Positions 9,674 through 37,839 of a stretch of DNA of 64,000 bases are shown piece after piece. Both the position numbers and the translations under genes were made by a program. This DNA comes from Escherichia coli. Its GTDB lineage: Bacteria; Pseudomonadota; Gammaproteobacteria; Enterobacterales; Enterobacteriaceae. The stretch lies in NCBI RefSeq assembly GCF_024223415.1, contig NZ_CP100500.1. One strand, written 5' to 3'. The notes under the pieces are model-generated. The model did no database searches. It worked only from the letters and a program-made list of their open reading frames with translations, and was not told the origin of the DNA. How positions within the stretch are numbered: the stretch's first letter is position 1; the number at the start of each line of letters is the position of its first letter.

Positions 9674-9684
9674 AACCTCACCCC

Positions 9685-10158: not shown

Positions 10159-10160
10159 AA

Positions 10161-20403: not shown

Positions 20404-21453
20404 ATGAAACTTTTCAGTTCAAAACAGCGGACAAAAATTTATTTCAAACGGACTGTAATACCAGCAACTTTTCTTTTCGCATCATTTCCCGCTTTTTCAC
20501 AGGATATTGTCACCCTTTATACAACCAGAGAGCCCGGCCTGATTAAGCCACTTCTGGACAGCTGGACAAAAAGCAGCGGTATAAATGTTAATACGGTTTA
20601 TATCAAGGACGGTATGCTGGAGCGGATTAAAGCTGAAGGAAAAAATTCTCCAGCCGATCTACTGATGACCGTCGATGCCGGAAATCTCATTGATTTAGTC
20701 GAAGCGGGAGTCACTCAGCCTGTTGAATCTGAAATACTGAAAACGGCCATTCCGGCAAATCTTCGTGGAGAAAATAACCACTGGTTTGCTTTATCCATGC
20801 GGGCCCGGGTACTGTATGCAGAAAAAAACTTCCCCATTGACAGCCTGCATTATGAACAACTCGCCAGCCCTGAATACAAAGGCAGGGTCTGCATGCGTTC
20901 AGGGCAGCACCCTTATAATACAGCATTGATTGCTGCCATGATCGCCCACCACGGAGAAGAAAAAGCAGAGGAGTGGTTACACGGTCTTAAAACCAACCTG
21001 TCACGAAAAGCAACGGGGGGCGATCGCGACATAGCCCGCGATATTTTAGGAGGGATATGTGACATCGGACTTGCGAATTCTTATTACGTCGGTCATATGA
21101 AAAATGCCAAAGAAGGGACAGATGCACGCAAATGGGGAGATGCAATTAAAGTAATCAAACCAGCCTTCGTGCAGGGAGGGACCCATGTCAACATAACCGG
21201 CGCAGCCGTTGCTCGTTATGCACCGAACAAAGAAAATGCAATAAAACTGATGGAGTATCTCATATCTGTTCCGGCGCAGCAGCAATATGCCAAAGCTAAC
21301 TTTGAGTACCCGGTACTCAAAGGCGTTGATCTTGACCCTGTCATCAGAACCACTATTGGTGAAATAGATGTCGATAAAATTCCGTTAACTGACATCGTAA
21401 AGAACCGCAAACAGGCAAGCTTACTGGTAGATAAAGTTGGGTTCGATCAATAA
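20404..21453 (+). CDS. afuA: ferric iron ABC transporter periplasmic binding protein (AfuA/FbpA family)
   Basis: 349-aa ORF with signal peptide, first gene of a binding protein-permease-ATPase operon. Confidence 0.8.
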   Translation: MKLFSSKQRTKIYFKRTVIPATFLFASFPAFSQDIVTLYTTREPGLIKPLLDSWTKSSGINVNTVYIKDGMLERIKAEGKNSPADLLMTVDAGNLIDLVEAGVTQPVESEILKTAIPANLRGENNHWFALSMRARVLYAEKNFPIDSLHYEQLASPEYKGRVCMRSGQHPYNTALIAAMIAHHGEEKAEEWLHGLKTNLSRKATGGDRDIARDILGGICDIGLANSYYVGHMKNAKEGTDARKWGDAIKVIKPAFVQGGTHVNITGAAVARYAPNKENAIKLMEYLISVPAQQQYAKANFEYPVLKGVDLDPVIRTTIGEIDVDKIPLTDIVKNRKQASLLVDKVGFDQ

Positions 21454-23125
21454 ATCATTTTGGGCTTTAGTGTGGCGTTATCTTTTTTCTGCATTACGTT
21501 CCACGCTAAAGCCTTTACATCTGTGCTCGCTGTGTATCGCACTGGGTGTTCTTACACCTGTCATAACGTTATTCTGGCTGGCAACAGATGCAGACAGTTC
21601 GCAATGGAGCGGTTTTTTAACGTTTGTGCTACCTTCCGCTCTGCAGAATACCGTTATTCTGTTAACGGGTGTTGCTGTAATGACATGCGTTCTTGGTGTG
21701 GGGTGCGCCTGGGCAGTGACTGTCTGGGATTTTCCCGGCCGAAAAATGCTCAGCTGGGCATTAGTGTTACCTCTGGCCATGCCTGCCTATATTGTTGCTT
21801 TTGCATGGCTCGATCTCCTGCATCCCCTGGGGCCTCTGCAAAATTTTATCCGTCTTTTATCGGGATTTGACAGTCCCCGTCAGTTTCGTCTGCCGGATTT
21901 GCGCTCCCTTCCCGGAGCGATAATATTACTCGGTCTTGTACTGTATCCTTATGTCTACCTGACCTGCCGACCGGTGTTTATCAATCAGTCCGCTCACTTA
22001 CTGGAGGCAGCACGAACATTAGGTTGTGGCCCTGTCTCTGCTTTTTTCCGGGTAACGCTACCTCTGGCACGCCCAGCAATAGTGACAGGTATGAGTCTGG
22101 CCCTTCTGGAAACCCTGAACGACATTGGTGCATCTGAATTTCTCGGTATCCGGACAATCACAGTAACAGTCTACACCACATGGATATCACGCTCTGATCT
22201 TGCCGGTGCTGCACAAATTGCCGGCATAGTTCTGACATTTGTCTTCATGATTCTGGGTCTTGAATTTTTGTTCCGGAGAAAACAGGTATTCAGTAGTCGC
22301 AGTATGCGGGGAATACAACAAATCAGGATTTATGGCTGGCGTGGATGGTTGCTGTGCAGCATTACAGCACTGCCCGTTATTCTGGGATTTTGCGCACCTG
22401 TATTATTCCTGGGATGGGAAAGTGCAAAGCGTCTCGGAGAAGGGATTACGATATCTTCATCATTGCTGTCAGCACTGAAAAATACATTGTTTCTCGCATC
22501 CGGTACGACCCTGATTGTATCAGGGGTCAGTTTACTGGTGGTCTGGAGCGCACGGCACAGTGTACTGAACAGCCGTTTCATCGAATTCCGACGAACGGTC
22601 ATGCACCTGGCATCTTCAGGATATGCTGTTCCCGGTACTATTCTTGCTATCGGCTTTCTGCCGCCTGCAATGCTGGTTGATCACTGGCTCGCTGGTCTTC
22701 TTAATATCAGCGGCCTTCCCCTCATGTCTGCAGGTATACTGTTAGTTATTTGCTGTGCGATTCGTTTCCTGGCCATTTCAACCGGAGCGCTTGATTCAGC
22801 CCTTGGTCGCATACCGCCGTCACTGGAACAGGCATCACGATTACTGGGAGAAAATGGCGCAGGGACTTTTGTCAGAGTTCATTTGCCATTACTTCGCCCT
22901 GCTCTGATCAGCAGTGCGCTGCTGGTTTTCTCCGACGTGATGAAAGAACTGCCGACCACCTTACTGCTACGACCTGTTAACTTTGAGACCCTGTCCACAC
23001 TCCTGTATGCGGAAGCGGCACGTGGAACCTACGAACAGGGCGCAATTGCTGCACTGTTAATCGTACTTGCCGGCATACTCCCTGTGATTTTATTAGTACG
23101 CAGGCAAATGAACAGTCACCACTAA
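21437..23125 (+). CDS. afuB: ferric iron ABC transporter permease (AfuB/FbpB family)
   Basis: 562-aa polytopic membrane protein with duplicated permease halves; overlaps afuA stop. Confidence 0.8.
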   Translation: MGSINKSFWALVWRYLFSALRSTLKPLHLCSLCIALGVLTPVITLFWLATDADSSQWSGFLTFVLPSALQNTVILLTGVAVMTCVLGVGCAWAVTVWDFPGRKMLSWALVLPLAMPAYIVAFAWLDLLHPLGPLQNFIRLLSGFDSPRQFRLPDLRSLPGAIILLGLVLYPYVYLTCRPVFINQSAHLLEAARTLGCGPVSAFFRVTLPLARPAIVTGMSLALLETLNDIGASEFLGIRTITVTVYTTWISRSDLAGAAQIAGIVLTFVFMILGLEFLFRRKQVFSSRSMRGIQQIRIYGWRGWLLCSITALPVILGFCAPVLFLGWESAKRLGEGITISSSLLSALKNTLFLASGTTLIVSGVSLLVVWSARHSVLNSRFIEFRRTVMHLASSGYAVPGTILAIGFLPPAMLVDHWLAGLLNISGLPLMSAGILLVICCAIRFLAISTGALDSALGRIPPSLEQASRLLGENGAGTFVRVHLPLLRPALISSALLVFSDVMKELPTTLLLRPVNFETLSTLLYAEAARGTYEQGAIAALLIVLAGILPVILLVRRQMNSHH

Positions 23126-23140
23126 AGGAACCCAACCACC

Positions 23141-23818
23141 ATGTCAGAAATTGCCCTGAGTCTTAATGATGTTCATGTTGTTTATACCAGAAGCAGACAG
23201 GTCGTGTTACAGGGTTTTTCAATGTCCGTTCATAAAGGTGAACTTGTATGTCTGCTTGGCGTTTCAGGTTGTGGAAAAACAACCGTATTACGAACTGTAG
23301 CAGGCCTGGAACGATTACAACAAGGTGAAATATTCATATCACAACGCTGTGTAGCCGGAGCCGGAATTCATCTCCCCCCGGAAAAGCGCAGGGTCGGAAT
23401 GGTCTTTCAGGAATATGCTCTGTTTCCCCACCTGACAGTAACACAAAATGTAGCCTTTGGTCTGCGCCATCTGCCTTATGAACTACAGCATGCCAGAGTC
23501 ACTGAACTTCTGAAAATGGTTGAATTATTATCCTGTGCAAAGCGCTATCCTCATGAACTCTCAGGTGGACAGCAACAACGTATTGCACTTGCCAGAGCAC
23601 TGGCCCCGGCCCCTGATATTTTGTTACTGGATGAGCCATTTTCCAGTCTGGATAAACAAACCAGTGAATACCTAGTGAAAGAAGTACGGGACCTGTTACG
23701 TAGTTCAGGTCAGACAGCCCTGATCGTTACTCATAATGAATCAGAAGCACTCGAAATATCAAACCGTATTTGTATCATGACGGAGGGTAATATAAGTTCG
23801 GTTCAGTCTGTGGTCTGA
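23141..23818 (+). CDS. afuC: ferric iron ABC transporter ATP-binding protein, short form (ATPase core only)
   Basis: Walker A GVSGCGKTT, signature LSGGQQQRIALARAL, Walker B ILLLDEP, H-loop VTHNESEA; 225 aa, no C-terminal extension. Confidence 0.8.
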   Translation: MSEIALSLNDVHVVYTRSRQVVLQGFSMSVHKGELVCLLGVSGCGKTTVLRTVAGLERLQQGEIFISQRCVAGAGIHLPPEKRRVGMVFQEYALFPHLTVTQNVAFGLRHLPYELQHARVTELLKMVELLSCAKRYPHELSGGQQQRIALARALAPAPDILLLDEPFSSLDKQTSEYLVKEVRDLLRSSGQTALIVTHNESEALEISNRICIMTEGNISSVQSVV

Positions 23819-24625
23819 GACGTAACCGCACATTCAGGATCCCCTGTTCGTCATGGAAGCTGTATTATGTAACTATATGGAGGCATAGCAGATATTGTTG
23901 AAGAAATACATCAAAAACACTCACATTTCTGGTACAACAGGAGTTGTAGATTTAATGATTATTGGGACGAAGTTACTACAGAAAAGCTGTACCGGGAACA
24001 GGTATGGTAGTTCCTTGTCACGTGTGGATTAAATGAGCATAATGCAGATCAATTACAAAAGGCATTTCGTAATAGCTCTGTTGTTGATTCGGTTACCATG
24101 ATGGCTGTGGCAAGAGCCACCATGTGACTATACATGATATAATTATTTGTGTGATGTTGTTATACCTGAACAACAGGCATGAGATAATGGAAAAAATTAT
24201 ACATATAACTCGGCTTTCCCATACTCCACTACAGAACAGTATATGATTCTGAACATTTCAATCTAGGCGCATTACATAACTATATTACATGTAACTATCT
24301 GGCCCTCAAATCATCGAGAGAATTGTTTAAAGTCAGCAGTCATAATCTGAATATAGATCATTATCACATAATTTAATTCTTAATTCACTACATTTTCCCT
24401 TGAATCCGGTATAATAAGACAGAGCACATGGCTGATGCTTTGTTTCGGTGTGGATAATCTGGTGGCGTCGGCTATGTGCTCTCAACAGTTAACTTATTAT
24501 GAATACTATTATCAATACAGGTTTTACATAAAAAATAAAAAGCATCTCCTGATATCAGCCCAGTCTCTTTGGGCTAACCAGAATTATACATAAGCTATGC
24601 AGATATTAATTTGCATACAAAACCA

Positions 24626-25108
24626 TTATTTTCTTGAGCACACTATACTAATGTATCCCAGAAGAGGTCCTGTGCATAATCCTGTTGCTGCCCATAATAC
24701 AGCAAGTGAAATATCAGGACCATCTGTATCCGGATAAAATCCTCCATAATAAACAGCAAATACAGTAGAGTATGCATTGAATGCAGGTAAACTACTGTTC
24801 ATGCACGGTATCTGAAGGAGTAAAAGAAGAACATACACTGTTATTATTACTGATATAATGATTGCCAACATGGCAGAAATGTGCAGGGATATCATGTAAT
24901 TTATAGCAGCAATACATAACACAGACGTTGCTATACCGGGAAGTAATGAAGCATAAATTTTCTTTAATATGTCAGGCGTCGCTCCCAGAGCATAGTACCA
25001 TGCCCAGCCAATAAATATAGCCCACACAGGAATATTAATCCCCGGCCATGAAGCCAGGCATGACAGCCCTGCTAACAGGGCTATGGTAAGATTCATCGGT
25101 AATTTCAT
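24626..25108 (-). CDS. hypothetical integral membrane protein (last gene of the carboxylase operon)
   Basis: 160-aa ORF, four or five hydrophobic helices, 15 nt downstream of the PxpC-like gene. Confidence 0.6.
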   Translation of the reverse strand: MKLPMNLTIALLAGLSCLASWPGINIPVWAIFIGWAWYYALGATPDILKKIYASLLPGIATSVLCIAAINYMISLHISAMLAIIISVIITVYVLLLLLQIPCMNSSLPAFNAYSTVFAVYYGGFYPDTDGPDISLAVLWAATGLCTGPLLGYISIVCSRK

Positions 25109-25122
25109 TTCAGACGCACCTG

Positions 25123-26109
25123 TTATGAGCCATAAGATAATGAATTAATGAGAAGGTTGAGTCTTTCATTAAATTCTTTACGGATTTCCAGAGCTTTATC
25201 CATACTGACTTGTGAAAATGTCACACTGGAGCCGGGTGCAAGTTGAGCCAGAATATCGAGATCAGTACTCACTACTGTCCCCACTGTCATATATCCCCCT
25301 CCTGATACAGCATCCCTGTGCAAAACTATTGGTGTGCTTCCAGAGGGAACCTGAATTGATCCCACGGGATAACAGGCATCAACGATATTTGATGGATCTG
25401 AACCAGCACCAAATGGCGGGTGCCGATCAACAAAATTAAGTGAGCGCCCTCCCTGAAACCTGAAACCTGTTCTGTCTGAATCCTTACTGATCTTCCATAC
25501 ATCATCAAAAAAACTTTCAACTGATTCCTGTTTCAGGCGATGGATATACATTCCGGGTACAACACGTAATTCATTTTCTTTAGTAAAAACTGGACGTAAC
25601 TCATCTGGCAGAGTGTAATTTATACGCCCTTTATTACATATTGCTTCCTGTACGGGTAATTCATCTCCGGCCTGTAACCGACGTCCTTTATAACCACCAA
25701 GACTGCCAAGGAGGTAAGTAGAACGACTTCCGGCAATAACAGGGACATTAATACCTCCCGCGATGGCAAGGTAACAGCGTACACCCACCGTGGTGTATGC
25801 GATTTTTAATATCTGTCCTTTCCGGGCTAACAGGGATGTATTCACCGGAACACTCTGATTATCCAGGGTCACCGTAAAAGGGGCACCGCTGACTGCAAAA
25901 AGAGTATCCTGCTCAAACAAGAGTTCGGGCCCCAGTAATGTGCATTCCAGCGCTGCATCAAACGGGTGATTACCGACAAGCAAATTGGCGGTAACTAACC
26001 CTGTACGATCTAATGCACCGGATGGCGGGATCCCGAGATGATAAAAGCCTTCTCGTCCTCCGTCCTGAACGGACGTGGATAATCCGGGCGTCAATACTTT
26101 AATTCCCAT
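25123..26109 (-). CDS. biotin-dependent carboxyltransferase family protein (allophanate hydrolase subunit 2 / PxpC-like)
   Basis: Start placed at MGIKVLTPGLSTSVQDGGREG; overlaps upstream gene by 11 nt. Confidence 0.8.
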   Translation of the reverse strand: MGIKVLTPGLSTSVQDGGREGFYHLGIPPSGALDRTGLVTANLLVGNHPFDAALECTLLGPELLFEQDTLFAVSGAPFTVTLDNQSVPVNTSLLARKGQILKIAYTTVGVRCYLAIAGGINVPVIAGSRSTYLLGSLGGYKGRRLQAGDELPVQEAICNKGRINYTLPDELRPVFTKENELRVVPGMYIHRLKQESVESFFDDVWKISKDSDRTGFRFQGGRSLNFVDRHPPFGAGSDPSNIVDACYPVGSIQVPSGSTPIVLHRDAVSGGGYMTVGTVVSTDLDILAQLAPGSSVTFSQVSMDKALEIRKEFNERLNLLINSLSYGS

Positions 26110-26983
26110 ACAGTTCTCCCAGTAAATTTTTAGTATAATCTTCAGGATTTTCTTCAAATGCGTTCAAATCAAAATTTACAGGCCTGATAAGTAATTCAAA
26201 ATTACCAGATTCCACATCACTTATACATTGATTATATTGTTCAGTATTGATCGCCCTGAACTTAATGATGTCCCCTGCCCGGAAAAACACCATAGAGTCT
26301 TTGAAATATGATAATTTCTGTTCTGTGTCATAAATCGGAGCTGGTGTTATACCGAACAATTGATACCCACCTGCCCCCCGGACTGGATATATAGCCCCGA
26401 AGCACCCGCCATGACCAACAGAATGTTTTGGTGTATCAGTTCTGGGAACAAGATATTTTGGAACCTGGATTTGCTTTTTCCGGTCAACCATCTGATACAT
26501 AAAAGGCAGCCCGGCAACGAAGCCAACCATAGAAACAAACCAGGGACTTGAATGATGGGCCTCAATAAACGTCTGAACATCCGGATATCCGTTTATTTCA
26601 GCAGCATACTCAAGATCGGTTAATGCCGGGTTTTGATGATTATTCCGGAACCGCATCAGGGTTTCATGAGTCCATGGATCATTATACAATACAGGAATTT
26701 CAATTATACGTGTCTGTAGTGTCATTTCTCCATTCCCGGAGAGCACATTAACATTTCGTATCTGTTGTAACAAATCATCAGGGTGTATAATGTCGGGATT
26801 AAATCTTATCTGACATGATGCATTTGCAAGGCAAATATCGAGCACACCATTAATATTTAATGATTCTATTTTTCTCGTAAGAGACAAGCTGTGAAAAAAT
26901 GCTTTAAGAGACATTTCCTCACTGACTTCGATGAAAAGATGCTCATCAGCACCAAATGTATAGCGCAAATTTATATCAGTCAT
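26099..26983 (-). CDS. allophanate hydrolase subunit 1 / PxpB-like (KipI family)
   Basis: 294-aa ORF in the conserved position between the biotin carboxylase and the PxpC-like gene. Confidence 0.75.
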   Translation of the reverse strand: MTDINLRYTFGADEHLFIEVSEEMSLKAFFHSLSLTRKIESLNINGVLDICLANASCQIRFNPDIIHPDDLLQQIRNVNVLSGNGEMTLQTRIIEIPVLYNDPWTHETLMRFRNNHQNPALTDLEYAAEINGYPDVQTFIEAHHSSPWFVSMVGFVAGLPFMYQMVDRKKQIQVPKYLVPRTDTPKHSVGHGGCFGAIYPVRGAGGYQLFGITPAPIYDTEQKLSYFKDSMVFFRAGDIIKFRAINTEQYNQCISDVESGNFELLIRPVNFDLNAFEENPEDYTKNLLGELYGN

Positions 26984-26992
26984 ACAGGTTCC

Positions 26993-28354
26993 TCATTTAA
27001 ATGCACCGGTATTCAGCCAGTCTTCAAGCGTTTTATTATGAAACTGAGCATTTCTGAAAAACTCAGCTGATAATAATGCTTCATGAAGAGGTATAGTTGT
27101 ATGAACGCCTTCTATTTGCATATTACCAAGGGTCTCCCGGGCAAGACTTATCGTTTTTTCTCTGCTGTCAGTATGAATAATAAGTTTTGCCAGTAAAGAA
27201 TCATACCAGAGAGGCATCTTATACCCTTCAAACATGTGAGTATCGACTCTTATTCCCTGCCCTTCAGGTATCTGCAATACCGATATTGTTCCGGGACTGG
27301 GCATAAAACCATTGTAAGGATTTTCTGCATTAATCCTCATTTCAATTGCAGCTCCCTGTAACGTAATCTCATCCTGTCCAAACGACAGAGAGTCGCCCCC
27401 GGCAATTCTCAGCATCCAGTCGATAATATCAATGCCTGTGACCATTTCTGTAACCGGATGTTCAACCTGAATCCGCGTATTCATTTCAATAAAAAAGAAT
27501 TCCCCGCTCCGGTCATCGACCAGGTACTCAATAGTTCCTGCGCTTGAATAATTCAGCATTCTGGCGAGATTCAGTGCACTCTGACATAAGGCCTCACGTA
27601 GTGACGCTGAAACAGAAGGCGATGGCGCTTCTTCTGTCACTTTTTGTCTTTTTCTCTGCAGAGAACACTCTCGTTCAAACAGGTGAACGATGTTTTTTCC
27701 GTCTCCAAGGATCTGAACTTCAACATGACGGGCTTCCGGTATATAACGTTCCAGATATACACCATCGTGCCCGAAAGCTGCTTTTGCTTCAGCACGCGCT
27801 ACTGTATATTCATGCACCAGCTGTTCCGGAGAATGTACAATCCGTATCCCCTTCCCGCCTCCCCCGGCCGAGGCCTTTATCAATAAAGGATATCCGGTAA
27901 TATCCGATGCTACTGATAATGCCTCCTCAGGGCTTATAACCTCGCCATTTGAGCCTGGTACAACCGGGACACCTGCCTTTATCGCGCAATCTCTCGCGAT
28001 TGCTTTATCCCCCATTTGCTCAATAATCTGAGGAGATGGCCCAACAAAAATAAGCCCTGCATCGAGCACCGCACGGGCAAAAGACGCATTCTCCGACAGA
28101 AAACCATATCCGGGATGAATGGCCTGAGCGCCAGACTGAAGGGCTGCATCAATTATCTTCTTTCCGTCCAGATAACTGTCATCGGCACGGGATTTACCTA
28201 TGACAATAACTTCATCGGCGCTCTTTGCCGGAAGAGAATTGATGTCTGATTCGCTACATGCCAGCACCGTTTTTATATTCAGCTTCTTTGCACTTCGTAT
28301 AATTCGTAATGCAATCTCACCTCTGTTGGCAATAAGCAGTTTTTGAATACTCAT
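26993..28354 (-). CDS. biotin carboxylase (AccC paralogue, ATP-grasp)
   Basis: 453 aa MSIQKLLIANRGEIALRIIRSAK...; ATP-grasp motifs; ...EMNTRIQVEHPVTE. Confidence 0.9.
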   Translation of the reverse strand: MSIQKLLIANRGEIALRIIRSAKKLNIKTVLACSESDINSLPAKSADEVIVIGKSRADDSYLDGKKIIDAALQSGAQAIHPGYGFLSENASFARAVLDAGLIFVGPSPQIIEQMGDKAIARDCAIKAGVPVVPGSNGEVISPEEALSVASDITGYPLLIKASAGGGGKGIRIVHSPEQLVHEYTVARAEAKAAFGHDGVYLERYIPEARHVEVQILGDGKNIVHLFERECSLQRKRQKVTEEAPSPSVSASLREALCQSALNLARMLNYSSAGTIEYLVDDRSGEFFFIEMNTRIQVEHPVTEMVTGIDIIDWMLRIAGGDSLSFGQDEITLQGAAIEMRINAENPYNGFMPSPGTISVLQIPEGQGIRVDTHMFEGYKMPLWYDSLLAKLIIHTDSREKTISLARETLGNMQIEGVHTTIPLHEALLSAEFFRNAQFHNKTLEDWLNTGAFK

Positions 28355-28364
28355 GCTCAGTTCC

Positions 28365-28622
28365 TTATATTATTTCTATGGTAGCCAGTACCTGACCAGG
28401 TTCCACTTCCTCCCCATTCTCCACCTTAAACTGGATATTAGTCCCGGTTGTTTCAGCATGAATTTCGTTAAACTGCTTCATTATTTCAATCAACCCAATG
28501 ACGGTACTCTCCTGAACAGTGTCACCATTCTCCAGAAACGGGGCACTATCAGGTGCTGGTTTCCGATAAAATACACCAGGTAAAGGTGAAAGAATTTCTG
28601 TAACAGCCATAACATCCTCCAT
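28365..28622 (-). CDS. biotin carboxyl carrier protein (biotinyl domain)
   Basis: 85-aa ORF with biotin-attachment-like EIMKQ motif. Confidence 0.75.
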   Translation of the reverse strand: MEDVMAVTEILSPLPGVFYRKPAPDSAPFLENGDTVQESTVIGLIEIMKQFNEIHAETTGTNIQFKVENGEEVEPGQVLATIEII

Positions 28623-28627
28623 GTATA

Positions 28628-29389
28628 TCAGTTTTGAGAATTTACACTTATGTCTGCCTCACGTAAGGCTTTATTTATTGCAATCAGAAGAGATAAGGCA
28701 CCGGGCGTATCACTATGGACACAGACAGAAGAGAAATGAATGTCAATATCCTGATCTTCTACAGTACGAACTTTTCCCTCCAGACAGGCACGCAGCACTT
28801 TTTTTGCGACATCATCAGGATTAAGAGGTTCAGTTCTCCGTATAAATACAATGGAACCGCTTTGATCATAATCCCTGTCGGCATAAAACTCACAAATAAC
28901 AGGATGTCCGATTTGCGTCGCTTCTTTCCAGATGGCACTACCATACATGCAATATATTCTCAATTCAGGCGCATAACTATGAAGCGTTGAGACAAAATGC
29001 TTTGCAGCATCCCGATCATGAGCAAGATGCATATACAACGCGCCATGAGGCTTAACATGGTTTACAGGCACATTGTGTAATGTGGCAAATTCACGCAAGG
29101 CCCCCAGCTGATAAATCATGTCATTGGTGATTTCCTCTGCGGTGCAGTGAATATGACGCCGGCCAAAACCAGCCAGATCACGATAACCGGGATGAGCACC
29201 GACAGACACACCACTGTCACGGGCGCTGATTATTGTACGGTGCATAATCCCCGGATCACCTGCATGAAAACCTGTCGCTATATTCGCTGAGGAGATGTAT
29301 GGCATAATATCAATATCCCGGATATCTCCGAGAGTCCATGCTCCAAAGCTTTCCCCCATATCAGAGCTGATATCAATACTGCGAAGCAT
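28628..29389 (-). CDS. LamB/YcsF family protein (5-oxoprolinase subunit A / PxpA-like)
   Basis: Start at MLRSIDISSDMGESFGAW with GGAGG Shine-Dalgarno; track ORF extends to 29437. Confidence 0.8.
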   Translation of the reverse strand: MLRSIDISSDMGESFGAWTLGDIRDIDIMPYISSANIATGFHAGDPGIMHRTIISARDSGVSVGAHPGYRDLAGFGRRHIHCTAEEITNDMIYQLGALREFATLHNVPVNHVKPHGALYMHLAHDRDAAKHFVSTLHSYAPELRIYCMYGSAIWKEATQIGHPVICEFYADRDYDQSGSIVFIRRTEPLNPDDVAKKVLRACLEGKVRTVEDQDIDIHFSSVCVHSDTPGALSLLIAINKALREADISVNSQN

Positions 29390-29531
29390 TAAAACCTCCG
29401 TCTGACAAATACGGTAACAGTATGTCATGTAGCACATTTGTTTCTTTATTGTAAATTATTATTTTTCTATGGTAATATATTAAATTTATTTATAATTACT
29501 GTTGCAAAAATATCTTTATCAGGAAAATTTG

Positions 29532-30467
29532 ATGAACATCACACTCAGACAGATAAAATATTTCGTATCAACAGCGGAGTCCGGATCGTTATCAACTGCA
29601 GCCAAATCACTCAATATTTCACAGTCTGCGATAACAACAGCAATTCAGGGGCTTGAAAGGGACATCGGTTATAAATTACTGATTCGCTCAAAATCTGGCG
29701 TTGATTTAACAGATGAGGGAAGACTGTTCTTATACAATGCCTACAATATTATCCGGACATATGATGAGGCAATAAATACAGTGCATGTTCAGAAGCCTTT
29801 GCATGGAACAGTTTCCATTGCGGCGACTTATACAATAATGGGATATTTTTTACCTGTTCATCTGAAACAATTTTCAAGAATTTATCCACATATAAAGCTG
29901 GAGCTTTTTGAAAATCAAAGAAGCATTATTGAAACCGGACTTCTCAGCGGAAAATATGATATTGGGATTGTAATCAATGATAATCTGACATGTCCCGATA
30001 TTGTATCAGAAACACTGTTACGGTCGGAGCGCCGTATATGGTTACCATCCGGCCACCCTCTGCTGGAAAAAGAAATTCTCTCCCTGAATGATATTGTCTC
30101 AGAGCCTTTTATTATCCTTGATGTGGATGAAGCATGGGAAACAGCAAAACGTTACTGGAATACGGCCAGTACCATGCCAGATGTAATTTTACATACGCAT
30201 TCTATTGAAGCTGTACGAAGTATGGTTGCGAATGATATGGGTATAACCATTCTTTCTGACATGGTTTATCGCCCATGGTCGCTTGAAGGGAAACGTATAG
30301 AAACACGCGCATTATCTAAATCAGAAGTTTTCCCAATGAGTATTGGCCTGGCATGGCGTAATAATGTTGAGTTTACGCCTGCAATGCAGGCTTTCATCAA
30401 TTATTTCAGAAAGATTTTTATGTGTTCTCCCGGTTATCAAAACCGGAATGTTGACCACTTTATCTGA
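29532..30467 (+). CDS. LysR-family transcriptional regulator, divergent from the carboxylase operon
   Basis: MNITLRQIKYFVSTAESGSLSTAAKSLNISQSAITTAIQGLE... (helix-turn-helix); track ORF begins 30 nt upstream. Confidence 0.85.
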   Translation: MNITLRQIKYFVSTAESGSLSTAAKSLNISQSAITTAIQGLERDIGYKLLIRSKSGVDLTDEGRLFLYNAYNIIRTYDEAINTVHVQKPLHGTVSIAATYTIMGYFLPVHLKQFSRIYPHIKLELFENQRSIIETGLLSGKYDIGIVINDNLTCPDIVSETLLRSERRIWLPSGHPLLEKEILSLNDIVSEPFIILDVDEAWETAKRYWNTASTMPDVILHTHSIEAVRSMVANDMGITILSDMVYRPWSLEGKRIETRALSKSEVFPMSIGLAWRNNVEFTPAMQAFINYFRKIFMCSPGYQNRNVDHFI

Positions 30468-30608
30468 TGTGTTAAAGACATCACTTTATTATTACCACTA
30501 TAGCTGAACTCATTGAAGATGATTAACTACTGTCTGCTCAGAGAAACGATGTAAAGTGAAATGTGAATACTCCTGACCAGAGTGTTGTTCCCTCTGTTAC
30601 CAGCCACC

Positions 30609-32102
30609 TCAGACCTTTACCAGCACCTGAGGGCAGTGATGGCGCAAACAGGTCAGAAGCGTGGCGAAAGCCTCTTCCATCTGCGCTTCCGGCAGACTCG
30701 CAAATCCCATCAACAGTCCTCTTTTACGCTGTGCTGTCAGGTAGTAAAGCGACAGCGGACGCACCAGTATATTTTGTGCATTGGCGCTGGCCGCAACCGC
30801 AACATCATCAACATCGTCCGGTAAATTTAATATCAGATGCAGCCCGGCATTATCGCTGAAATCTGACAGTGCCTGTGTTCCACAGTGACGTTCAATCAGT
30901 TCACCAAGAAAGGCGCGACGGCGACTGTACAGTAACCGCATACGGCGAATATGAGCAGAATAATGCCCTCCGTTGATAAACTCAGCCAGTGCCATCTGGA
31001 TCAGTGTATGCCCGCCACGATAAAGCTCAGCATGGGCACGTTTTAAAGCCTCTTTCAGCGGGCGCGGTAATACCAGATAACCCAGCCTCAGTCCGGGATA
31101 CACTGTCTTGCTGAAAGTACCAATATACACCACTGGTGCATCGTCAATAAGCCCCTGTAGTGCCGGAACTGGTTGACCGGAAAAGCGAAATTCACTGTCA
31201 TAATCATCTTCCACAATCCAGCTTCCATGCTGTCTGGCAAGGGCCAGCAAGCGTTGCCGTCGCTCAAGACTCATCACCACGCCCAGAGGGTATTGATGGG
31301 ATGGCGTGACGAAAATCAGCCTGGGAGGTGGCATCAGGCGTTCGGGAGGTACCAGACCACTGGCATCAACGGCAACAGGGGTGATCTGCACAGCATTCAT
31401 TGCCAGTACATGGCGTATTCCCCAGTAAGACGGCTCTTCCACCCATGCCATATCACCGGCATCTGCCAGCATGCGTGCAACAAGATCGATCGCCTGATGG
31501 ATACCTTCGGTGATAAGTATCTGATCAGCCTGACAGCGTACGCCACGCGCAATCCGTAAATAATCAACCAGTGCATGCTGTAATTCCGGTGTCCCTCCGG
31601 TACAGCTATAGCTCAGCCGCTCCGGCTCAGGACGGCGACTGATACGCGCCTGAATCCTGCTGAACAGGGGGTGGGGAAAGGCACTGACATCCGGGACGCC
31701 GGGAATAAATGCCCCCCACTGGCACGGACTGGCGCTGACATGCCGGAGCAGATAATCCCCGCGGTGAGAAACAGCAGAACTCAGCCTGGCATCTTCACTT
31801 TTTTCCGTGTTACTGAACGCCATTAAGAAGGTATCAGGAGCCGTCTGTGCGACGAATGTTCCGCTTCCACGACGTGATACCACATATCCTTCCGCCTGTA
31901 ATTGTTCATAAGTTGTTAATACTGTGTTTCTTGAGATTCCAAGTTCAACTGCAAGTTCCCTGGAGGCAGGGAGACGGCTGTGCGGCGGTAAAGAGCCATC
32001 GAGAATAGCATAGCGAAGCGCATTATAGAGCCGTTTGTGCAGAAGTTTATCCTGCTCCTGACCCATTCTGAACAGCAGCAGATCGCCTATGAATGCCCTC
32101 AA
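30609..32102 (-). CDS. MocR/GntR-family regulator with PLP-dependent aminotransferase-like domain
   Basis: N-terminal GntR helix-turn-helix (RLPASRELAVELGISRNTVLTTYEQLQAEGY) plus a long aminotransferase-fold domain; start may be the internal Met at 32066. Confidence 0.8.
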   Translation of the reverse strand: MRAFIGDLLLFRMGQEQDKLLHKRLYNALRYAILDGSLPPHSRLPASRELAVELGISRNTVLTTYEQLQAEGYVVSRRGSGTFVAQTAPDTFLMAFSNTEKSEDARLSSAVSHRGDYLLRHVSASPCQWGAFIPGVPDVSAFPHPLFSRIQARISRRPEPERLSYSCTGGTPELQHALVDYLRIARGVRCQADQILITEGIHQAIDLVARMLADAGDMAWVEEPSYWGIRHVLAMNAVQITPVAVDASGLVPPERLMPPPRLIFVTPSHQYPLGVVMSLERRQRLLALARQHGSWIVEDDYDSEFRFSGQPVPALQGLIDDAPVVYIGTFSKTVYPGLRLGYLVLPRPLKEALKRAHAELYRGGHTLIQMALAEFINGGHYSAHIRRMRLLYSRRRAFLGELIERHCGTQALSDFSDNAGLHLILNLPDDVDDVAVAASANAQNILVRPLSLYYLTAQRKRGLLMGFASLPEAQMEEAFATLLTCLRHHCPQVLVKV

Positions 32103-32220
32103 CTGGATCCCTCAGATAATCAAAATTGGTACTCGATTATAGTGCCATCGCCTGCCTAAATAAACAACACAGCGTCTCATTTGTTGCAGTTAAGTGACAT
32201 ATTTAACAGGAGAGTCGGGA

Positions 32221-33486
32221 ATGAAAAATTCTGAACTGAATCATCGTCGCCAGCAGGCGACTCCCCGTGGTGTGGGGGTAATGTGTGACTACTTTGTCGG
32301 GAAAGCGGAGAACGCCACGCTGTGGGATGTGGAAGGCAATGAAGTTATCGACTTTGCCGCCGGTATTGCCGTACTGAACACCGGCCATCGGCATCCAAAA
32401 ATTGTGGCGGCGGTAGAGCAGCAGTTGCAGTCGTTTACCCATACCGCTTATCAGATTGTCCCTTATGAGAGTTACGTTTCGCTTGCAGAACGTATTAATG
32501 CTGTCGCCCCTGTCGATGGACCTGCCAAAACGGCATTTTTTACCACCGGTGCCGAAGCAGTTGAAAATGCGGTGAAAATTGCGCGCGCATACACCGGTCG
32601 TCCGGGGATTATTACTTTTGGCGGTGGGTTCCATGGTCGTACATTCATGACCATGGCACTCACGGGCAAAGTCGCTCCCTACAAAACAGGGTTTGGCCCG
32701 TTCCCGGGCTCAGTTTACCACGCCGTCTATCCTAATGATGCCCATGGCATTTCCGTTGATGATGCTCTCAGGAGTCTTGATCGTATCTTTAAAGCAGATA
32801 TTCCTGCTGATCAGGTCGCCGCGATTGTACTGGAGCCCGTTCAGGGAGAAGGCGGGTTCAATGTCGCTCCGGCCGCTTTTATGCAGGCATTGCGTGAGTT
32901 GTGCGATACACACGGGATCCTGCTGGTTGCCGACGAAGTACAGACCGGTTTTGCCCGTACTGGCAGGCTATTTGCGATGCAGCACTACGCTGTGAAAGCC
33001 GATCTGATAACAATGGCGAAAAGTCTGGCTGGCGGCTTCCCGTTATCGGGGGTTGTGGGGCGTGCCGAAGTCATGGATGCCCCGGCTCCGGGAGGACTGG
33101 GAGGTACTTATGCCGGTAATCCGCTGGCAGTAGCTGCTGCGCATGCGGTGCTGGATATCATTGAAGAAGAACAGCTCTGCCAGCGTGCCGATCAACTTGG
33201 CGAACATCTGAAAGAGGTGCTCAGTCAGGCCCGGGCAGGATGTCCGGCAATTGCGGATGTGCGTGGACTGGGTTCAATGGTGGCAGTGGAGTTTAACAAT
33301 CCGCAAAGCGGTGAGCCGTCGGCGGAATATGCACGACAGGTACAGCACAAAGCCCGGGAAAACGGCCTGCTGCTGTTGAACTGTGGTATCTACGGTAACG
33401 TTATCCGTTTTCTCTACCCTTTAACAATCCCGGATGCTCAGTTCAGCAAAGCGCTGAATATTCTGACCCGAATTCTGCGTACCTGA
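32221..33486 (+). CDS. class III aminotransferase (4-aminobutyrate aminotransferase GabT-like)
   Basis: Start MKNSELNHRRQQATPRGV with AGGAGAG Shine-Dalgarno; strongly GabT-like throughout. Confidence 0.85.
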   Translation: MKNSELNHRRQQATPRGVGVMCDYFVGKAENATLWDVEGNEVIDFAAGIAVLNTGHRHPKIVAAVEQQLQSFTHTAYQIVPYESYVSLAERINAVAPVDGPAKTAFFTTGAEAVENAVKIARAYTGRPGIITFGGGFHGRTFMTMALTGKVAPYKTGFGPFPGSVYHAVYPNDAHGISVDDALRSLDRIFKADIPADQVAAIVLEPVQGEGGFNVAPAAFMQALRELCDTHGILLVADEVQTGFARTGRLFAMQHYAVKADLITMAKSLAGGFPLSGVVGRAEVMDAPAPGGLGGTYAGNPLAVAAAHAVLDIIEEEQLCQRADQLGEHLKEVLSQARAGCPAIADVRGLGSMVAVEFNNPQSGEPSAEYARQVQHKARENGLLLLNCGIYGNVIRFLYPLTIPDAQFSKALNILTRILRT

Positions 33487-33620
33487 TATGCACGGAAAAT
33501 TGCCACAACGGCAGGGAAGCCTTTCTTTCCCACGTGTCGTTTGTGCCAGGCGTGAGTGATTTATTCCTGATATCACCTTTTTCCGGCGGCAATAGTCGCC
33601 GGTGTAATACGGAATCTGTT

Positions 33621-34865
33621 ATGTCTGAAAATGCCACCTTTTCCCCTGAACAGTCATGCCGCAAACATACCGCTGCGCCGGCGAAATCCCTGAGTTTCGT
33701 TGAAGGTGTGTCGATGATTGTCGGCACGAACATTGGCGCAGGTGTACTGTCTGTGGCCTACGCCTCCGGTAAAGCCGGTTTTCTGCCGCTGTTATTCTGG
33801 CTCGTGCTGGTCGGGAGCCTGACCACCATAACCATGCTGTATGTGGCTGAATCGACTTTACGTACCCGTAAACATTTGCAGTTAAGCGGATTGTCACATC
33901 GTTATGTCGGACGCTGTGGCGCGCTGATAATGTTCCTTTCCGTCTGTGTGAACAGCGTTGGCGCTCTGATTGCATATATGAGCGGAAGCGGTAAGCTGCT
34001 GCACTCACTGCTGGGCATTTCTCCAGCTCTGGGTAGCATGTTATTTTTCATTCCCGCCGCAGGAGTGCTTTATCTCGGCCTGAAAGCGATAGGTCGCGGG
34101 GAAAAATTTATAAGTATCGGTATGGTGGTGATGCTCACTATCCTTATCGTCGCCACAATGCTGAAAGACACAACACAAATGCGTTACCTGCTGGATGGCA
34201 ACTGGCTGTATATGGTGCCGGTCTTTAACGTTGTGGCATTTTGTTTCTCGGCACAATATATTGTTCCGGAAATGGCGCGCGGTTTTTCTGATAAACCAGA
34301 AAAATTGCCGAAGGCAATTATGGTCGGGATGGGAATTACCTTCATTCTGCTGGCTCTGGTGCCTATGTCTGTCATAGCACTCAACGGGCTGGACAATATT
34401 TCTGATGTGGCGACCATTTCCTGGGGACGTGCGCTGGGTGAGTGGGCCTTTTTCTCTGCGAATCTGTTTGCTCTTTGCGCGATGCTGACTTCTTACTGGG
34501 GACTTGGTGGCAGTTTTCTGACCAATATCGTTGACCAGTTCAGTCCGGGCGATGACAGCCAGCCTCTAAGACGCTTTCTGTTACTGCTGATCGTTGTCAT
34601 ACCACCGTTTATTCTTGCTTATAGCGGCATGGTATCGTTTGTAAATGCGCTTTATTTTGCGGGGGTCTTCAGTGGCGTGGTCCTGTCTGTTATGCCCATT
34701 CTGATACTGAAAGGGGCGCGCCAGCACGGTGACCTGACACCTGGCTGGACGTGTCCTGCACTCATTATTCATCCGCTACTCCAGAGCTTTATTGTGTTGT
34801 TATATCTCTGTAGCGCTGCGTATGCAATTGCTTCTGCGCTGGGCCATCTCCCGGCAGGCTGGTAA
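33621..34865 (+). CDS. amino-acid permease (HAAAP-type)
   Basis: About 11 predicted transmembrane helices; start placed at MSENATFSPEQ; family assignment moderate. Confidence 0.65.
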   Translation: MSENATFSPEQSCRKHTAAPAKSLSFVEGVSMIVGTNIGAGVLSVAYASGKAGFLPLLFWLVLVGSLTTITMLYVAESTLRTRKHLQLSGLSHRYVGRCGALIMFLSVCVNSVGALIAYMSGSGKLLHSLLGISPALGSMLFFIPAAGVLYLGLKAIGRGEKFISIGMVVMLTILIVATMLKDTTQMRYLLDGNWLYMVPVFNVVAFCFSAQYIVPEMARGFSDKPEKLPKAIMVGMGITFILLALVPMSVIALNGLDNISDVATISWGRALGEWAFFSANLFALCAMLTSYWGLGGSFLTNIVDQFSPGDDSQPLRRFLLLLIVVIPPFILAYSGMVSFVNALYFAGVFSGVVLSVMPILILKGARQHGDLTPGWTCPALIIHPLLQSFIVLLYLCSAAYAIASALGHLPAGW

Positions 34866-35175
34866 ACATAAAGGAAAAGTATTATCGACCTCCTGTATAT
34901 TAAAATTGAGTTAGCATAGTGACGAACAGATTTGGCAGGGCATATGTAGCCTGCTCCCCTCCGGGGTTTAAAGCTCTTTTTGTAAGCAACGGGCGCATGT
35001 GCTGACCCACTCATTTGACATCATGACGGTTTATCTGTACGTCACCATAACGCATTTTATAAGAATGTTTTTTGTCCCATAACAGGTGTCCACTGGTTAA
35101 AAAGGTGGGCACCTGTCGTTACCAGTACTGGCTTAATTGCTACATACGGCTGTCGGTTTACGCTTACTTTCAACT

Positions 35176-35251
35176 TGTGGGTAAGGGGATGGAGTGCGAA
35201 TAAATGATCGAGCTTCGTGCGAATCACTGATCGAATACATCGGAATGCGCA
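35176..35251 (+). repeat. interspersed repeat copy A1 (TGTGGGTAAGGGGATG terminus followed by GATC-containing subrepeats)
   Basis: Closely similar to 59539..59591; subunits of form GTGCGAAT-N-GATCG. Confidence 0.6.
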
Positions 35252-35424
35252 CTCTGAAGCAAACTTAAAACATCTCTGCACCATTCCATGCACGCATAAA
35301 AGTCATTCCGGCATTTCATTTTACATAACATAAACAGAACAATAATAATTACAACAACATTCACACCAGCATTACAGAACACACTCTGTCTGTTGTTATC
35401 ACCAGAAATATCAGGAGTATTTAA

Positions 35425-36591
35425 ATGATTATTTCCTCACCTGCAGATTACAGGGACGCCGCAAAACACAGACTGCCACGCTTTCTTTTTGATTACATAG
35501 ACGGCGGGGCTGTTACTGAAAAAACCATGCATGAAAATATGACCTCTTTATCTTCGGTCAGCCTCCGGCAGCAGGTGCTTTGTGGCGCCGGAGCCCCCGA
35601 ACTGAACACCACCATCCTTGATTCAGAATGGGCCATGCCTGTTGCTCTGGGCCCCGTCGGTGCCACTGGCATGTACGCCCGTCGTGGAGAGGTGCAGGCA
35701 GCCAGAGCGGCCTCAGCAATGAACATCCCTTATACTCTCTCAACCGTCTCCGTCTGCCCGATCGAAGAGGTCGCCGGACACGCTGACGGGCAACTGTGGT
35801 CCCAGTTATACGTCCTTCGGGATCGTGGTTATATGCAAAACGCACTTGAACGCGCCTGGACTGCAGGTATGAAAACCCTGGTATTTACCGTCGACATGCC
35901 TGTGCCGGGCTCCCGGTACAGGGATAACCATTCAGGGATGTCAGGTCCCCACGCCACACTGCGTCAGTATCTTCAGGCCGTTCTTCATCCCCGCTGGGCG
36001 CTGGATGTGGGAATTGCCGGTCGTCCTCTGTCATTTGGTAACATCGAAACGTACACCGGGCATAAAATGTCGATGGATGACTATATGGGCTTTATCAGCA
36101 AAAACTTTGATCCCTCTATTGCATGGAACGATCTCGAATGGATCCGTGATGGCTGGAAAGGTAAACTGATAATAAAAGGGATCCTTGTTCCGGAAGATGC
36201 AAAAAATGCTGTACGGCTTGGCGCGGATGGCATCATTGTCTCCAATCATGGCGGACGTCAGCTTGATGGTGCCATCCCCACGGCCAGGGCATTACCGGCG
36301 ATAGCAGATGCAGTGGGTGATGACATCACGGTACTGGCGGATTCAGGTATTCGTTCCGGTGTGGATGTGGTCCGGATGCTTGCTCTGGGGGCAAAAGGTG
36401 TGCTGCTGGGAAGAGCGTATATTTACGCACTTGCCGCTGCGGGAAAAAAAGGCGTTGAGCACCTGCTCAGACTTTATGCTGAAGATATGAAAGTCACCAT
36501 GACGCTGATCGGCGCTTCTTCTCCCGCTGATATCAGCAGCAGAAATCTTGAATATCTGGAAAAAGAATTCTCCCGACATTCATCATCCTGA
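35425..36591 (+). CDS. FMN-dependent L-lactate dehydrogenase (LldD paralogue)
   Basis: 388 aa [29 protein letters not shown]...; alpha-hydroxy-acid oxidase fold motifs. Confidence 0.88.
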
Positions 36592-36667
36592 CCAAAGTAA
36601 ACCAGGCACATATCCTCCATGCTCCCGGGACAACAGAGCGCAGTTCGGGCACTACAGCCTTACTGGT

Positions 36668-36958
36668 TTACCAGTATGGTCTGCATTCAGAAGGGACCGA
36701 CAACAACTCAGCCAGCTCCGCCACAAGGCGGTTGGTTTCCAGTAATTTCCGCAGTCTCACCGAAAAATAGCCTTGTGCCACATCGTGATTTTCACAGGCT
36801 TCCCTGCGCGTCAGCCCCAGAACAAAATAATCCCTCAGCGCCAGGATAACCTTTTTACTGTTAACGGGAGAAAGCGCTGCAAGTATTTCAAAATGTGCAT
36901 CTGACATGCTTCCGGGCGTGTCATATATCCCGGCAACACGACTGTGATATATCCCCAC
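36668..36958 (-). CDS. PapB/FocB-family fimbrial-type transcriptional regulator (orphan)
   Basis: 96-aa ORF with PGSMSDAHFEILAALSPVNSKKVILALRDYFVLGLTRREACENHDVAQGYFSVRLRKL, resembling PapB. Confidence 0.55.
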   Translation of the reverse strand: MGIYHSRVAGIYDTPGSMSDAHFEILAALSPVNSKKVILALRDYFVLGLTRREACENHDVAQGYFSVRLRKLLETNRLVAELAELLSVPSECRPYW

Positions 36959-37839
36959 GGATACCCCCTGATTACCGCCTGCCCTTATTCCCCGGGAGAC
37001 TGAGAACAGGCTGAGATATAAGTATATTTATATAATATTATATTTCGGATTATTCGCAGAATACTGAAAAAACCGGTCGGGTCAACCGCAGGAAAACAGA
37101 AAGAGCCTGTAATAACGCATAGAAACGATATTTAAAACCAGAACAACCATCAAAAACAGAACATAAAGTCACAAAAACCGTCAAAAACGACCAGGTACTG
37201 CATTTTTAACACCTTTTTTAAATTTTGGTATCTTTACAAAAAACACCACCTGAAAATCATTTATTTAATTAAATAAAGTAAATTGCTTAGCCTGATAAAT
37301 ATTGTTCTGCAACACTCCGGTTCAGGCAGAATGTATTTTCATGGCTTACCCATTCAGGCGTAAATGCGATATTCCGCACATGACAGAGACCACACAAAGA
37401 AAAACAGGCGCAGACAGCCGGATACAGGATAAATTAACACTTCACAATCCGGCATTATTACGCTACAACATTCACGGGCAACTGCCCTTGTAACGAAAAC
37501 TTCCTTAATTTGGGTATTTGTGTGCCGTACGTCTGTGGTGTACGGCTTTTTTTCATTTTTTTATAATTTCTATAAATAAAGATATAATCAATACGTATAT
37601 ACCGTCGTATAAGATCCTTCTTCACCTTTCATTAAAAAGATCCGGAACAAAACAGACGATGAGATTGTGGTACTACCAGATTTACACCCTTACTCCGGAT
37701 AATTCACAAATCCTGAAATTACGACCTTCCTCCCGTTGCCGGACTGAAACAATATGCAGACACTCTGACGGACATGTCAGCAATGCACTCGCTCTCTGCT
37801 GTACAGGTATTACACCATACTTCACCAGGAGGTCTGTTC

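Follow-up and report, generated by a model that had tools for sequence, protein, structure and literature searches.

Why should an operon for a PxpABC-type lactamase in Escherichia coli carry a biotin carboxylase and a biotin carboxyl carrier protein of its own, and what does such an enzyme act on? The question is raised by positions 24626-30467 of a 64-kb stretch of E. coli DNA (contig NZ_CP100500.1), which is called the window below. The six-gene operon located there is a variant of the PxpABC-type lactamase with its own biotin carboxylase (BC) and biotin carboxyl carrier protein (BCCP) module; it is annotated in databases, and no characterised member was found. On balance, and with modest confidence, we lean towards reading the locus as a LysR-controlled, multi-subunit, biotin-dependent enzyme that opens lactams, the likeliest conversion being that of 2-pyrrolidinone to 4-aminobutyrate (GABA).

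The mechanism of PxpABC lactamases has been assumed and not shown. The operon, together with gene fusions and with relatives that keep only the BCCP, provides a genomic link to carboxybiotin chemistry, and it brings every partner together in a unit small enough to clone. From the locus one would predict that some E. coli of gut and poultry can turn 2-pyrrolidinone-type lactams into GABA. Its LysR is a candidate sensor for lactams, and for DUF1097 the locus suggests a possible function.

Composition of the operon

Genes were called from the listing of open reading frames (ORFs) in the window and from Pfam and NCBIfam profile scans. Six tightly packed genes lie on the minus strand between 24626 and 29389, in the order LamB/YcsF, BCCP, BC, CT_C_D, CT_A_B and DUF1097, and a LysR gene is divergent from them.

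28628..29389, minus strand: PxpA-like LamB/YcsF protein, 253 amino acids (aa), first gene of the operon (Pfam LamB_YcsF, E 5.5e-85)
28365..28610, minus strand: BCCP, 81 aa, or 85 aa if the ORF is extended to 28622 (Pfam Biotin_lipoyl, E 1.1e-13)
26993..28354, minus strand: BC, 453 aa (Biotin_carb_N, CPSase_L_D2 and Biotin_carb_C, E 1e-33 to 5e-69)
26099..26983, minus strand: CT_C_D subunit, long PxpB/KipI-like protein, 294 aa (Pfam CT_C_D, E 3.2e-36)
25123..26109, minus strand: CT_A_B subunit, PxpC/KipA-like protein, 328 aa (Pfam CT_A_B, E 1.5e-84)
24626..25108, minus strand: DUF1097 protein, a small membrane protein of 160 aa with six predicted helices, encoded by the last gene (E 3.5e-19)
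29532..30467, plus strand: LysR-type regulator, 311 aa (Pfam HTH_1 and LysR_substrate)

In operon order the intergenic gaps are 5-17, 10, 9, -11 and 14 bp, the negative value being an overlap of 11 nt between the start of the CT_A_B gene and the CT_C_D gene, which makes the six genes a single operon. The ATG of the pxpA-like gene is preceded, 5 nt upstream, by a GGAGG ribosome-binding site. The outer limits, 24626 and 30467, are exactly the stop codons of the DUF1097 and LysR genes, and the RefSeq annotation of the identical E. coli sequence has the same seven genes. The original prediction, six co-directional and tightly spaced genes with a divergent LysR regulator, was thus recovered in full, with all seven genes at the expected positions and with strong family matches. 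The coupling of PxpABC-type subunits to a dedicated BC and BCCP was likewise borne out, as all of them are encoded in one operon with intact motifs.

The motifs GGGGKG (164), EMNTRIQVEH (290) and RINAE (340) are intact in the BC, whose top matches in the PDB are biotin carboxylases (E 4e-136); judged from its sequence, the protein would be an ATP-grasp enzyme that carboxylates biotinyl-BCCP. The BCCP consists of a free-standing biotinyl domain alone; it has a thumb of AccB type and the motif EIMKQF, and lacks the N-terminal half of AccB. The lysine of this motif aligns with the biotinyl-lysine of E. coli AccB (EAMKMM), and the form E[VI]MK[QTS]F is kept in 54 of 54 relatives. The CT_C_D subunit is the counterpart of subdomains C and D of the carboxyltransferase (CT) domain of urea carboxylase, and the CT_A_B subunit that of subdomains A and B. 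The PxpA-like LamB/YcsF protein is the proposed ring-opening hydrolase.

Relation to housekeeping enzymes and to urea carboxylase

How far do these proteins differ from the housekeeping enzymes whose names they bear? RefSeq names the BC and BCCP as components of acetyl-CoA carboxylase. The BC passes the NCBIfam model PRK12833 (703.7 against a cut-off of 686) and fails the accC equivalog (563 against 626.5), and the BCCP passes PRK07051 (121 against 87) and fails the AccB equivalog TIGR00531 (77 against 115). The operon has no accA or accD gene, and with a BCCP that is a biotinyl domain alone it does not qualify as an acetyl-CoA carboxylase.

The three lactamase-type subunits show a similar distance from canonical PxpABC. 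The PxpA-like protein passes the PxpA subfamily models NF003814 (278.6 against 226) and NF003816 and is below the cut-off in every PxpA equivalog model of NCBIfam; among PDB entries it scores 189 bits with TTHB195 against 116 with E. coli YbgL, being nearer to the Thermus and Pyrococcus homologs. The CT_C_D subunit fails the PxpB equivalog TIGR00370 (73.1 bits against 145.55), and its score with the urea carboxylase model TIGR02712 (101 bits, profile positions 804-1079) is above its PxpB score. Its residues 7-272 align to the urea carboxylase of Kluyveromyces lactis (3va7), and residues 131-242 alone to YbgJ. The CT_A_B subunit fails the PxpC equivalog NF045499 (223.3 against 500), and its PDB matches are 3va7 with E 1.4e-53 and E. 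coli YbgK with E 2.1e-47. By these comparisons the CT subunits are as close to urea carboxylase as to canonical PxpBC, or closer.

The operon thus co-encodes the three families of 5-oxoprolinase PxpABC at scores under the equivalog thresholds. What a biotin-dependent carboxylase would need by sequence is present: an ATP-grasp BC, a carrier with EIMKQF and CT subunits homologous to 3va7. It is not a urea carboxylase in the usual sense, since the parts are four separate proteins with partial TIGR02712 scores of 101-507 against a cut-off of 1303.85. The annotation of the identical E. coli locus shows no amidase-type allophanate hydrolase within 20 kb on either side and no CgdAB genes near the operon.

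The view that the cluster is not a simple duplicate of housekeeping accBC plus pxpABC therefore stands: the scores of BC and BCCP are under the AccC and AccB equivalog cut-offs, those of the CT subunits are under the cut-offs for PxpB and PxpC, and the comparison with the chromosomal pxpABC locus that had been proposed gave low similarity to E. coli YbgJ, YbgK and YbgL. A recent duplication of accBC and pxpABC was also considered and rejected, as the equivalog scores fail and megablast matches occur only in the 11 island-bearing genomes among 5426 complete E. coli genomes.

Comparison with described systems

The E. coli operon is part of a widespread family. P. aeruginosa PA0492-PA0496, genes that are annotated only and have no established function, are among its members. 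The published product names of PA0492-PA0495 fit the order LamB-BCCP-BC-CT. PA0496, which the published naming covers only as part of the range, we take to be the second CT gene. The dedicated NCBIfam models PRK12833 and PRK07051 are exactly those passed by the BC and BCCP of the window.

PxpABC of E. coli (YbgJKL), B. subtilis and C. glutamicum shares the three core families with the operon and hydrolyses its lactam in an ATP-dependent way, with a transporter and a local regulator (PMC13274462). In contrast, the CT subunits of the window are longer, more like urea carboxylase and under the equivalog thresholds, and the operon has its own BC and BCCP. Urea carboxylase/urea amidolyase (K. lactis 3va7, 5i8i) has, like the operon, a BC, a BCCP and a CT of A/B and C/D subdomains, and the proposed logic is alike: an amide nitrogen is carboxylated, then the product is hydrolysed. 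Urea carboxylase, however, is a single chain of about 1200 aa that works with an amidase-type allophanate hydrolase, whereas the operon would divide the task among four proteins and a LamB/YcsF hydrolase.

In Aspergillus nidulans the lamA/lamB pair serves 2-pyrrolidinone utilisation, and 2-pyrrolidinone is its genetic substrate. LamB is the founder of the LamB/YcsF family, to which the window homolog belongs with E 5.5e-85; the fungal pair differs in being eukaryotic. If LamA is, as we take it to be, a urea-carboxylase-like fused BC-CT-BCCP protein, lamA/lamB would be the fused counterpart of the operon.

A further comparison is given by mycobacterial MSMEG_0435-0436, homologs of PxpC and PxpB. 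In a preprint by electron cryomicroscopy (PDB 9yx5) they hold the biotin of the AccA3 BCCP in the CT pocket, placed for carboxylation (10.1101/2025.10.28.685139). Unlike the operon, they borrow the BC-BCCP of acyl-CoA carboxylase, they resemble the window proteins only distantly (53 and 92 bits), and the authors read the binding as regulatory.

Evolution of the operon across taxa

Homologs of the long CT_C_D run to thousands, with Pseudomonas, Rhizobium, Marinomonas, Dickeya and Lonsdalea among the genera that have them. Our locus table, with one genome per species, held 80 loci (loci in the table and outside it are numbered with the prefix L below), of which 77 were informative and three were truncated by contig ends. 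In type I, represented by 52 loci, a LysR gene is divergent from PxpA-BCCP-BC-CT-CT. Type II (25 loci) has the same layout without BCCP and BC. An ortholog of the window LysR, with 48-55% identity (43% in L037, the most distant locus), stands divergent beside PxpA in all 52 type I and in 23 of 25 type II loci. The two type II loci of Xenorhabdus lack the LysR and have instead a GABA transaminase gene directly after CT_A_B.

In the neighbour-joining tree of concatenated PxpA, CT_C_D and CT_A_B, type II is nested in type I several times, and Xenorhabdus groups with Enterobacteriaceae bacterium B14 and the window. Sibling Pseudomonas loci of types I and II share 80-84% nucleotide identity over LysR-PxpA and over CT-CT. 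Two such Pseudomonas pairs (L082 against L080 and L066 against L044) differ by a precise excision of about 1.63 kb, running from the end of pxpA to the start of CT_C_D and removing BCCP and BC. The upstream flank is common to both loci in one pair, which indicates that the deletion happened in place, and the excision is recurrent in several lineages. The idea that types I and II are ancient paralogs with different substrates was therefore rejected for Pseudomonas, on the nucleotide identity and the clean excision.

Other arrangements join the CT to biotin more closely. BC is fused to CT_C_D in a protein of 826 aa (L089, 6001-8481), within a LamB-[BC~CT]-CT_A_B-BCCP cluster located behind an ATP-binding cassette (ABC) transporter of Urt/Liv type, and CT_C_D is fused to BCCP in a protein of 520 aa (L090, 1346-2908). 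Type III clusters have the order CT_C_D-CT_A_B-LamB-BCCP-DUF1097 without BC and were found in one Bacillota metagenome-assembled genome (MAG) and two unassigned metagenome contigs (L085, L086, L087), their enzymes being 27-39% identical to those of the window. As far as gene structure can tell, the BC~CT and CT~BCCP fusions and the type III clusters tie the carboxyltransferase to biotin.

Type III also bears on the membrane component. We found 18 homologs of DUF1097; all three with examined contigs lie in CT-LamB-BCCP clusters, and three further homologs are on contigs equal in size to those of CT_C_D matches. Among type I relatives only Enterobacteriaceae bacterium B14 (L011) has DUF1097 directly after the operon. 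Between E. coli and type III the identity of DUF1097 is 43-54%, above that of the enzymes, and this better conservation supports a genuine functional partnership. The predicted structure has six helices (predicted local distance difference test, pLDDT, 91), and the protein is presumed to be a channel or permease. In 32 of the 52 type I loci the last gene encodes instead a membrane protein of 438 aa with 12 helices (L004, 11953-13269), absent from type II loci, without a Pfam match and with a weak signal of NCS1, the hydantoin/allantoin/cytosine permease family. This NCS1-like permease would fill the slot of DUF1097 in most relatives.

Directly downstream of the type I operon of Pseudomonas L004, at 13419-18126, lies a five-gene cluster whose Pfam families (Radical_SAM/BATS, Aminotran_1_2, Abhydrolase, Methyltransf and CbiA/AAA_26) match bioBFHCD, which may reflect a functional pairing or no more than synteny.

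Likely substrate and proposed reaction

Which lactam is opened? The nearest genetic evidence comes from P. putida KT2440, where PP_2920-2, a PxpABC paralog with the adjacent regulator PP_2919, is needed for butyrolactam as nitrogen source and is unable to replace the 5-oxoproline system PP_4575-7 (10.1101/2021.12.09.472016). PP_2919/PP_2920-2 are induced by butyrolactam, and the promoter reporter is specific and sensitive, responding to butyrolactam only (10.1101/2021.12.09.472016). Like the operon, PP_2919-PP_2922 have a divergent regulator beside PxpA, a long CT_C_D and a CT_A_B; unlike it, they lack genes for BCCP, BC and a membrane protein. P. putida-group loci with this layout fall in the same clade as the window, and PP_2919-PP_2922 very probably belong with them. 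Each of the eight type II loci from the P. putida group has precisely the order regulator-PxpA-CT-CT, with 62-66% aa identity to the window, and their CT_A_B cluster has 500 P. putida-group members.

Genes of GABA catabolism recur beside the cluster, in the window and elsewhere. Two lie next to the operon:

30609..32102, minus strand: MocR/GabR-type regulator (Pfam GntR and Aminotran_1_2; the NCBIfam MocR, PdxR and GabR models match)
32221..33486, plus strand: 4-aminobutyrate:2-oxoglutarate transaminase (NCBIfam PRK06777, 842 against a cut-off of 725)

The island transaminase passes the GABA-transaminase equivalog cut-offs of NCBIfam and is 77-80% identical to those directly after CT_A_B in Xenorhabdus and in an Enterobacteriaceae MAG. 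In Celerinatantimonas a gene like that of succinate semialdehyde dehydrogenase (SSADH) flanks the cluster. Because such genes recur, the substrate is likely to be 2-pyrrolidinone or a close relative, and the P. putida genetics, the Xenorhabdus and MAG transaminases and the SSADH-like neighbour together favour the conversion of 2-pyrrolidinone to GABA. The island transaminase is the probable consumer of the product, and the MocR/GabR-type regulator is probably tied to this downstream step, outside the operon. The lactam or amide substrate at which the original prediction had hinted, without claiming it as established, is upheld and narrowed by these neighbours. So is the role it gave to the membrane component and the LysR regulator as parts of the system: DUF1097 is a conserved partner across phyla, and the divergent LysR is kept in 75 of the 77 informative relatives.

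In the reaction that we propose, the BC, with ATP and bicarbonate, would carboxylate the biotin carried by the small, separate BCCP. The CT_C_D/CT_A_B heterodimer, homologous to the CT of urea carboxylase but divided over two chains, would move the carboxyl group to the lactam amide, the PxpA/LamB subunit would hydrolyse the activated ring, and the carbamate would lose CO2 to leave an omega-amino acid. Overall, a lactam would be hydrolysed at the expense of ATP, in the way that urea carboxylase and allophanate hydrolase together deal with urea. With 2-pyrrolidinone (gamma-butyrolactam) the product would be GABA, from which the GabR-like regulator and GABA transaminase of the island would feed succinate semialdehyde, and DUF1097 would be a dedicated membrane passage. 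Gene content, intact motifs, family membership, conservation, fusions and genomic associations can be read from the sequences themselves; the substrate, the N-carboxylation chemistry and the direction of transport are what we infer in this scheme. Thermodynamics does not favour the hydrolysis of lactams, and a caprolactamase that is not related to these enzymes depends on ATP and bicarbonate (PMC8453981); a carboxybiotin mechanism fits both observations.

Could the same hold for the whole class? It is conceivable, though doubtful, that PxpABC-type lactamases including 5-oxoprolinase are all biotin-dependent carboxylase-hydrolases, in which the need for ATP comes from BC, and PxpB/PxpC N-carboxylate the lactam from carboxybiotin. 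Neither PxpB nor PxpC is known to contain a recognisable fold for nucleotide binding. On such a view type I would use its own BC and BCCP, type III its BCCP only, and type II and canonical systems would borrow AccB/AccC (AccA3/AccBC in actinobacteria). The complex of AccA3 with MSMEG_0435-0436 would then be a catalytic encounter and not a regulatory sequestration.

Alternative explanations

Several observations weigh against a biotin-dependent lactam-opening enzyme for 2-pyrrolidinone. Repeated losses have removed BC and BCCP from 25 of the 77 loci. PP_2919-2922 are very probably a type II form, a judgement that comes from architecture and taxonomy and not from the KT2440 sequence, and a plasmid with PP_2920-2 alone restores butyrolactam use in the deletion mutant (10.1101/2021.12.09.472016). 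The enzyme can therefore do without a dedicated BC and BCCP, and unless housekeeping AccBC takes their place it may have no need of biotin. PxpBC, moreover, are at present assumed to phosphorylate the substrate directly in an ATP-dependent way (PMC13274462). The closest relatives of the E. coli proteins are only 62-69% identical, and our literature search found neither a described BC-linked LamB/YcsF system nor a studied member that bears BC and BCCP. The window has no clear palindromic LysR box, only a degenerate copy of the one seen in relatives, and the operon (41% GC) differs in composition from the gabT module (~50-52%), so the two may be neighbours by chance. One type III cluster (L086) lies beside Amidohydro_1 and M20 (hydantoinase-like) genes and another (L087) beside AcetylCoA_hydro and aldehyde:ferredoxin oxidoreductase genes; substrates may therefore differ between clusters. 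The clean deletions of BC and BCCP with the other genes intact, the P. putida plasmid and the assumed phosphorylation would all suit a PxpABC-like core that hydrolyses the lactam with ATP alone, BC and BCCP being a regulator, a handler of bicarbonate/CO2 or a relic. We nevertheless hold this to be rather unlikely. In each of the 52 type I loci the BC and BCCP genes are intact, translationally coupled and flanked by pxpA and the CT genes, BC~CT and CT~BCCP fusions exist, distant clusters keep BCCP without BC, and biotin occupies the CT pocket of the mycobacterial homologs.

The remaining alternatives change the substrate or the role altogether. A split carboxylase of urea, guanidine or another acyclic amide, with PxpA replacing allophanate hydrolase on the N-carboxylated product, would explain why the CT subunits match the CT domain of urea carboxylase over their whole length, why some homologs bear the JGI product name 'urea carboxylase' and why one fused relative lies behind the Urt/Liv-type transporter. 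It is unlikely all the same, as LamB/YcsF is tied to lactam use in every studied case, CT_C_D reaches only 38 bits against the K. lactis enzyme, and proteins of urea-carboxylase length are absent from the top 150 family representatives. Neither allophanate hydrolase nor CgdAB is annotated nearby, no riboswitch was found in the scan given below, and the mycobacterial homologs showed no urea carboxylase activity (10.1101/2025.10.28.685139). A second, redundant 5-oxoprolinase converting 5-oxoproline to glutamate, that is, a PxpABC paralog with extra acc-like genes, is suggested by the RefSeq/NCBIfam names (PxpA, 'PxpB/PxpC family') and by the matching three-subunit core. The CT subunits, however, are far under the PxpB/PxpC cut-offs, PxpA passes subfamily models only, and similarity to YbgJ, YbgK and YbgL is low; the P. 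putida sister system gives no 5-oxoproline complementation and has a butyrolactam-only reporter, and the neighbours are GABA genes, not glutamate genes, which together make this reading quite improbable. Least credible of all is that the proteins are KipI/KipA-type regulators, inhibiting a histidine kinase or sequestering BCCP to throttle fatty-acid synthesis, and no catabolic enzyme. Homology to KipI/KipA and the sequestration favoured in the mycobacterial study speak for it, but a LysR-controlled operon with its own BC, BCCP, hydrolase and membrane protein on a metabolic island, transaminase and dehydrogenase genes adjoining the clusters of relatives, and the clear catabolic phenotype of the P. 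putida sister system all speak for catabolism.

Control region

The operon and the LysR gene share one short intergenic segment:

29390..29531, no strand assigned: divergent control region, AT-rich, 142 bp, with promoter-like hexamers and a degenerate LysR-type box

The degenerate box, TATCTTTATCAGG, is at 29511-29523. Relatives have a conserved TCTG-N5-CAGA (T-N11-A) box at the same position beside the LysR start. LysR is presumed to be a lactam-responsive activator, its inducer being presumed with it. Promoter-like sites for the operon on the minus strand (29483-29455 and 29475-29448) are not above chance, with 21 such sites against 20.7 expected from shuffled sequence. Terminator-like sites numbered 11 against 5.0 (standard deviation 2.6) in shuffled sequence, which is not clearly above chance, and no convincing terminator was seen after DUF1097. 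The Rfam scan of 19000-36000 gave chance-level matches only and no riboswitch, for guanidine or otherwise.

Genomic island and neighbouring genes

The operon was predicted to be accessory, and this agrees with its presence in 11 of the 5426 genomes searched and with its place on a tRNA-Ser island. The island site is the tRNA-Ser gene next to ghrA, and CP4-like genes and insertion sequence (IS) elements are aboard. The GC content of the operon is about 41% against about 50% in the surroundings. The flanking ABC transporter and the MocR/GabR-gabT-transporter block are found in exactly the 11 genomes with the operon, so the operon and both segments travel as one cargo.

The block at 30609-34865 comprises the MocR/GabR-like regulator, the GABA transaminase and a transporter of the aromatic-amino-acid family, with about 50-52% GC against 41% in the operon; this suggests a mosaic assembly of a lactam-to-GABA-to-succinate-semialdehyde route. 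On the other side, at 20404-23818, is an island-specific ABC transporter with a solute-binding protein, a fused two-domain permease of 562 aa and a short ATPase of 225 aa, and about 800 bp of apparently non-coding DNA (23819-24625) separate it from DUF1097. This transporter was set aside as the uptake system, being of aminoethylphosphonate/thiamine/Fe3+ type and accompanying the operon in E. coli only.

The island is a patchwork of catabolic modules. From its start at tRNA-Ser/ghrA (~5490-20000, positions carried over from the annotation of L001 with an offset of +4625) it has a CbtA/YeeU toxin-antitoxin, RadC, an antirestriction protein, an Ag43 pseudogene, ISEc8 and a GTPase. From ~35400 to 41000 and on (L001, L088), lldD and lldP are split by a gene for a PapB/FocB-type regulator, then come a transporter of the major facilitator superfamily, IS66/IS3 debris and a raffinose/sucrose-like block (porin, GH32, alpha-galactosidase). 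Among the strains with the island, individual ones (E. coli GF60 and MS 119-7) have the operon region broken by an IS3-family element or the upstream ABC transporter broken by IS2, which suggests that the cargo is decaying in some E. coli lineages.

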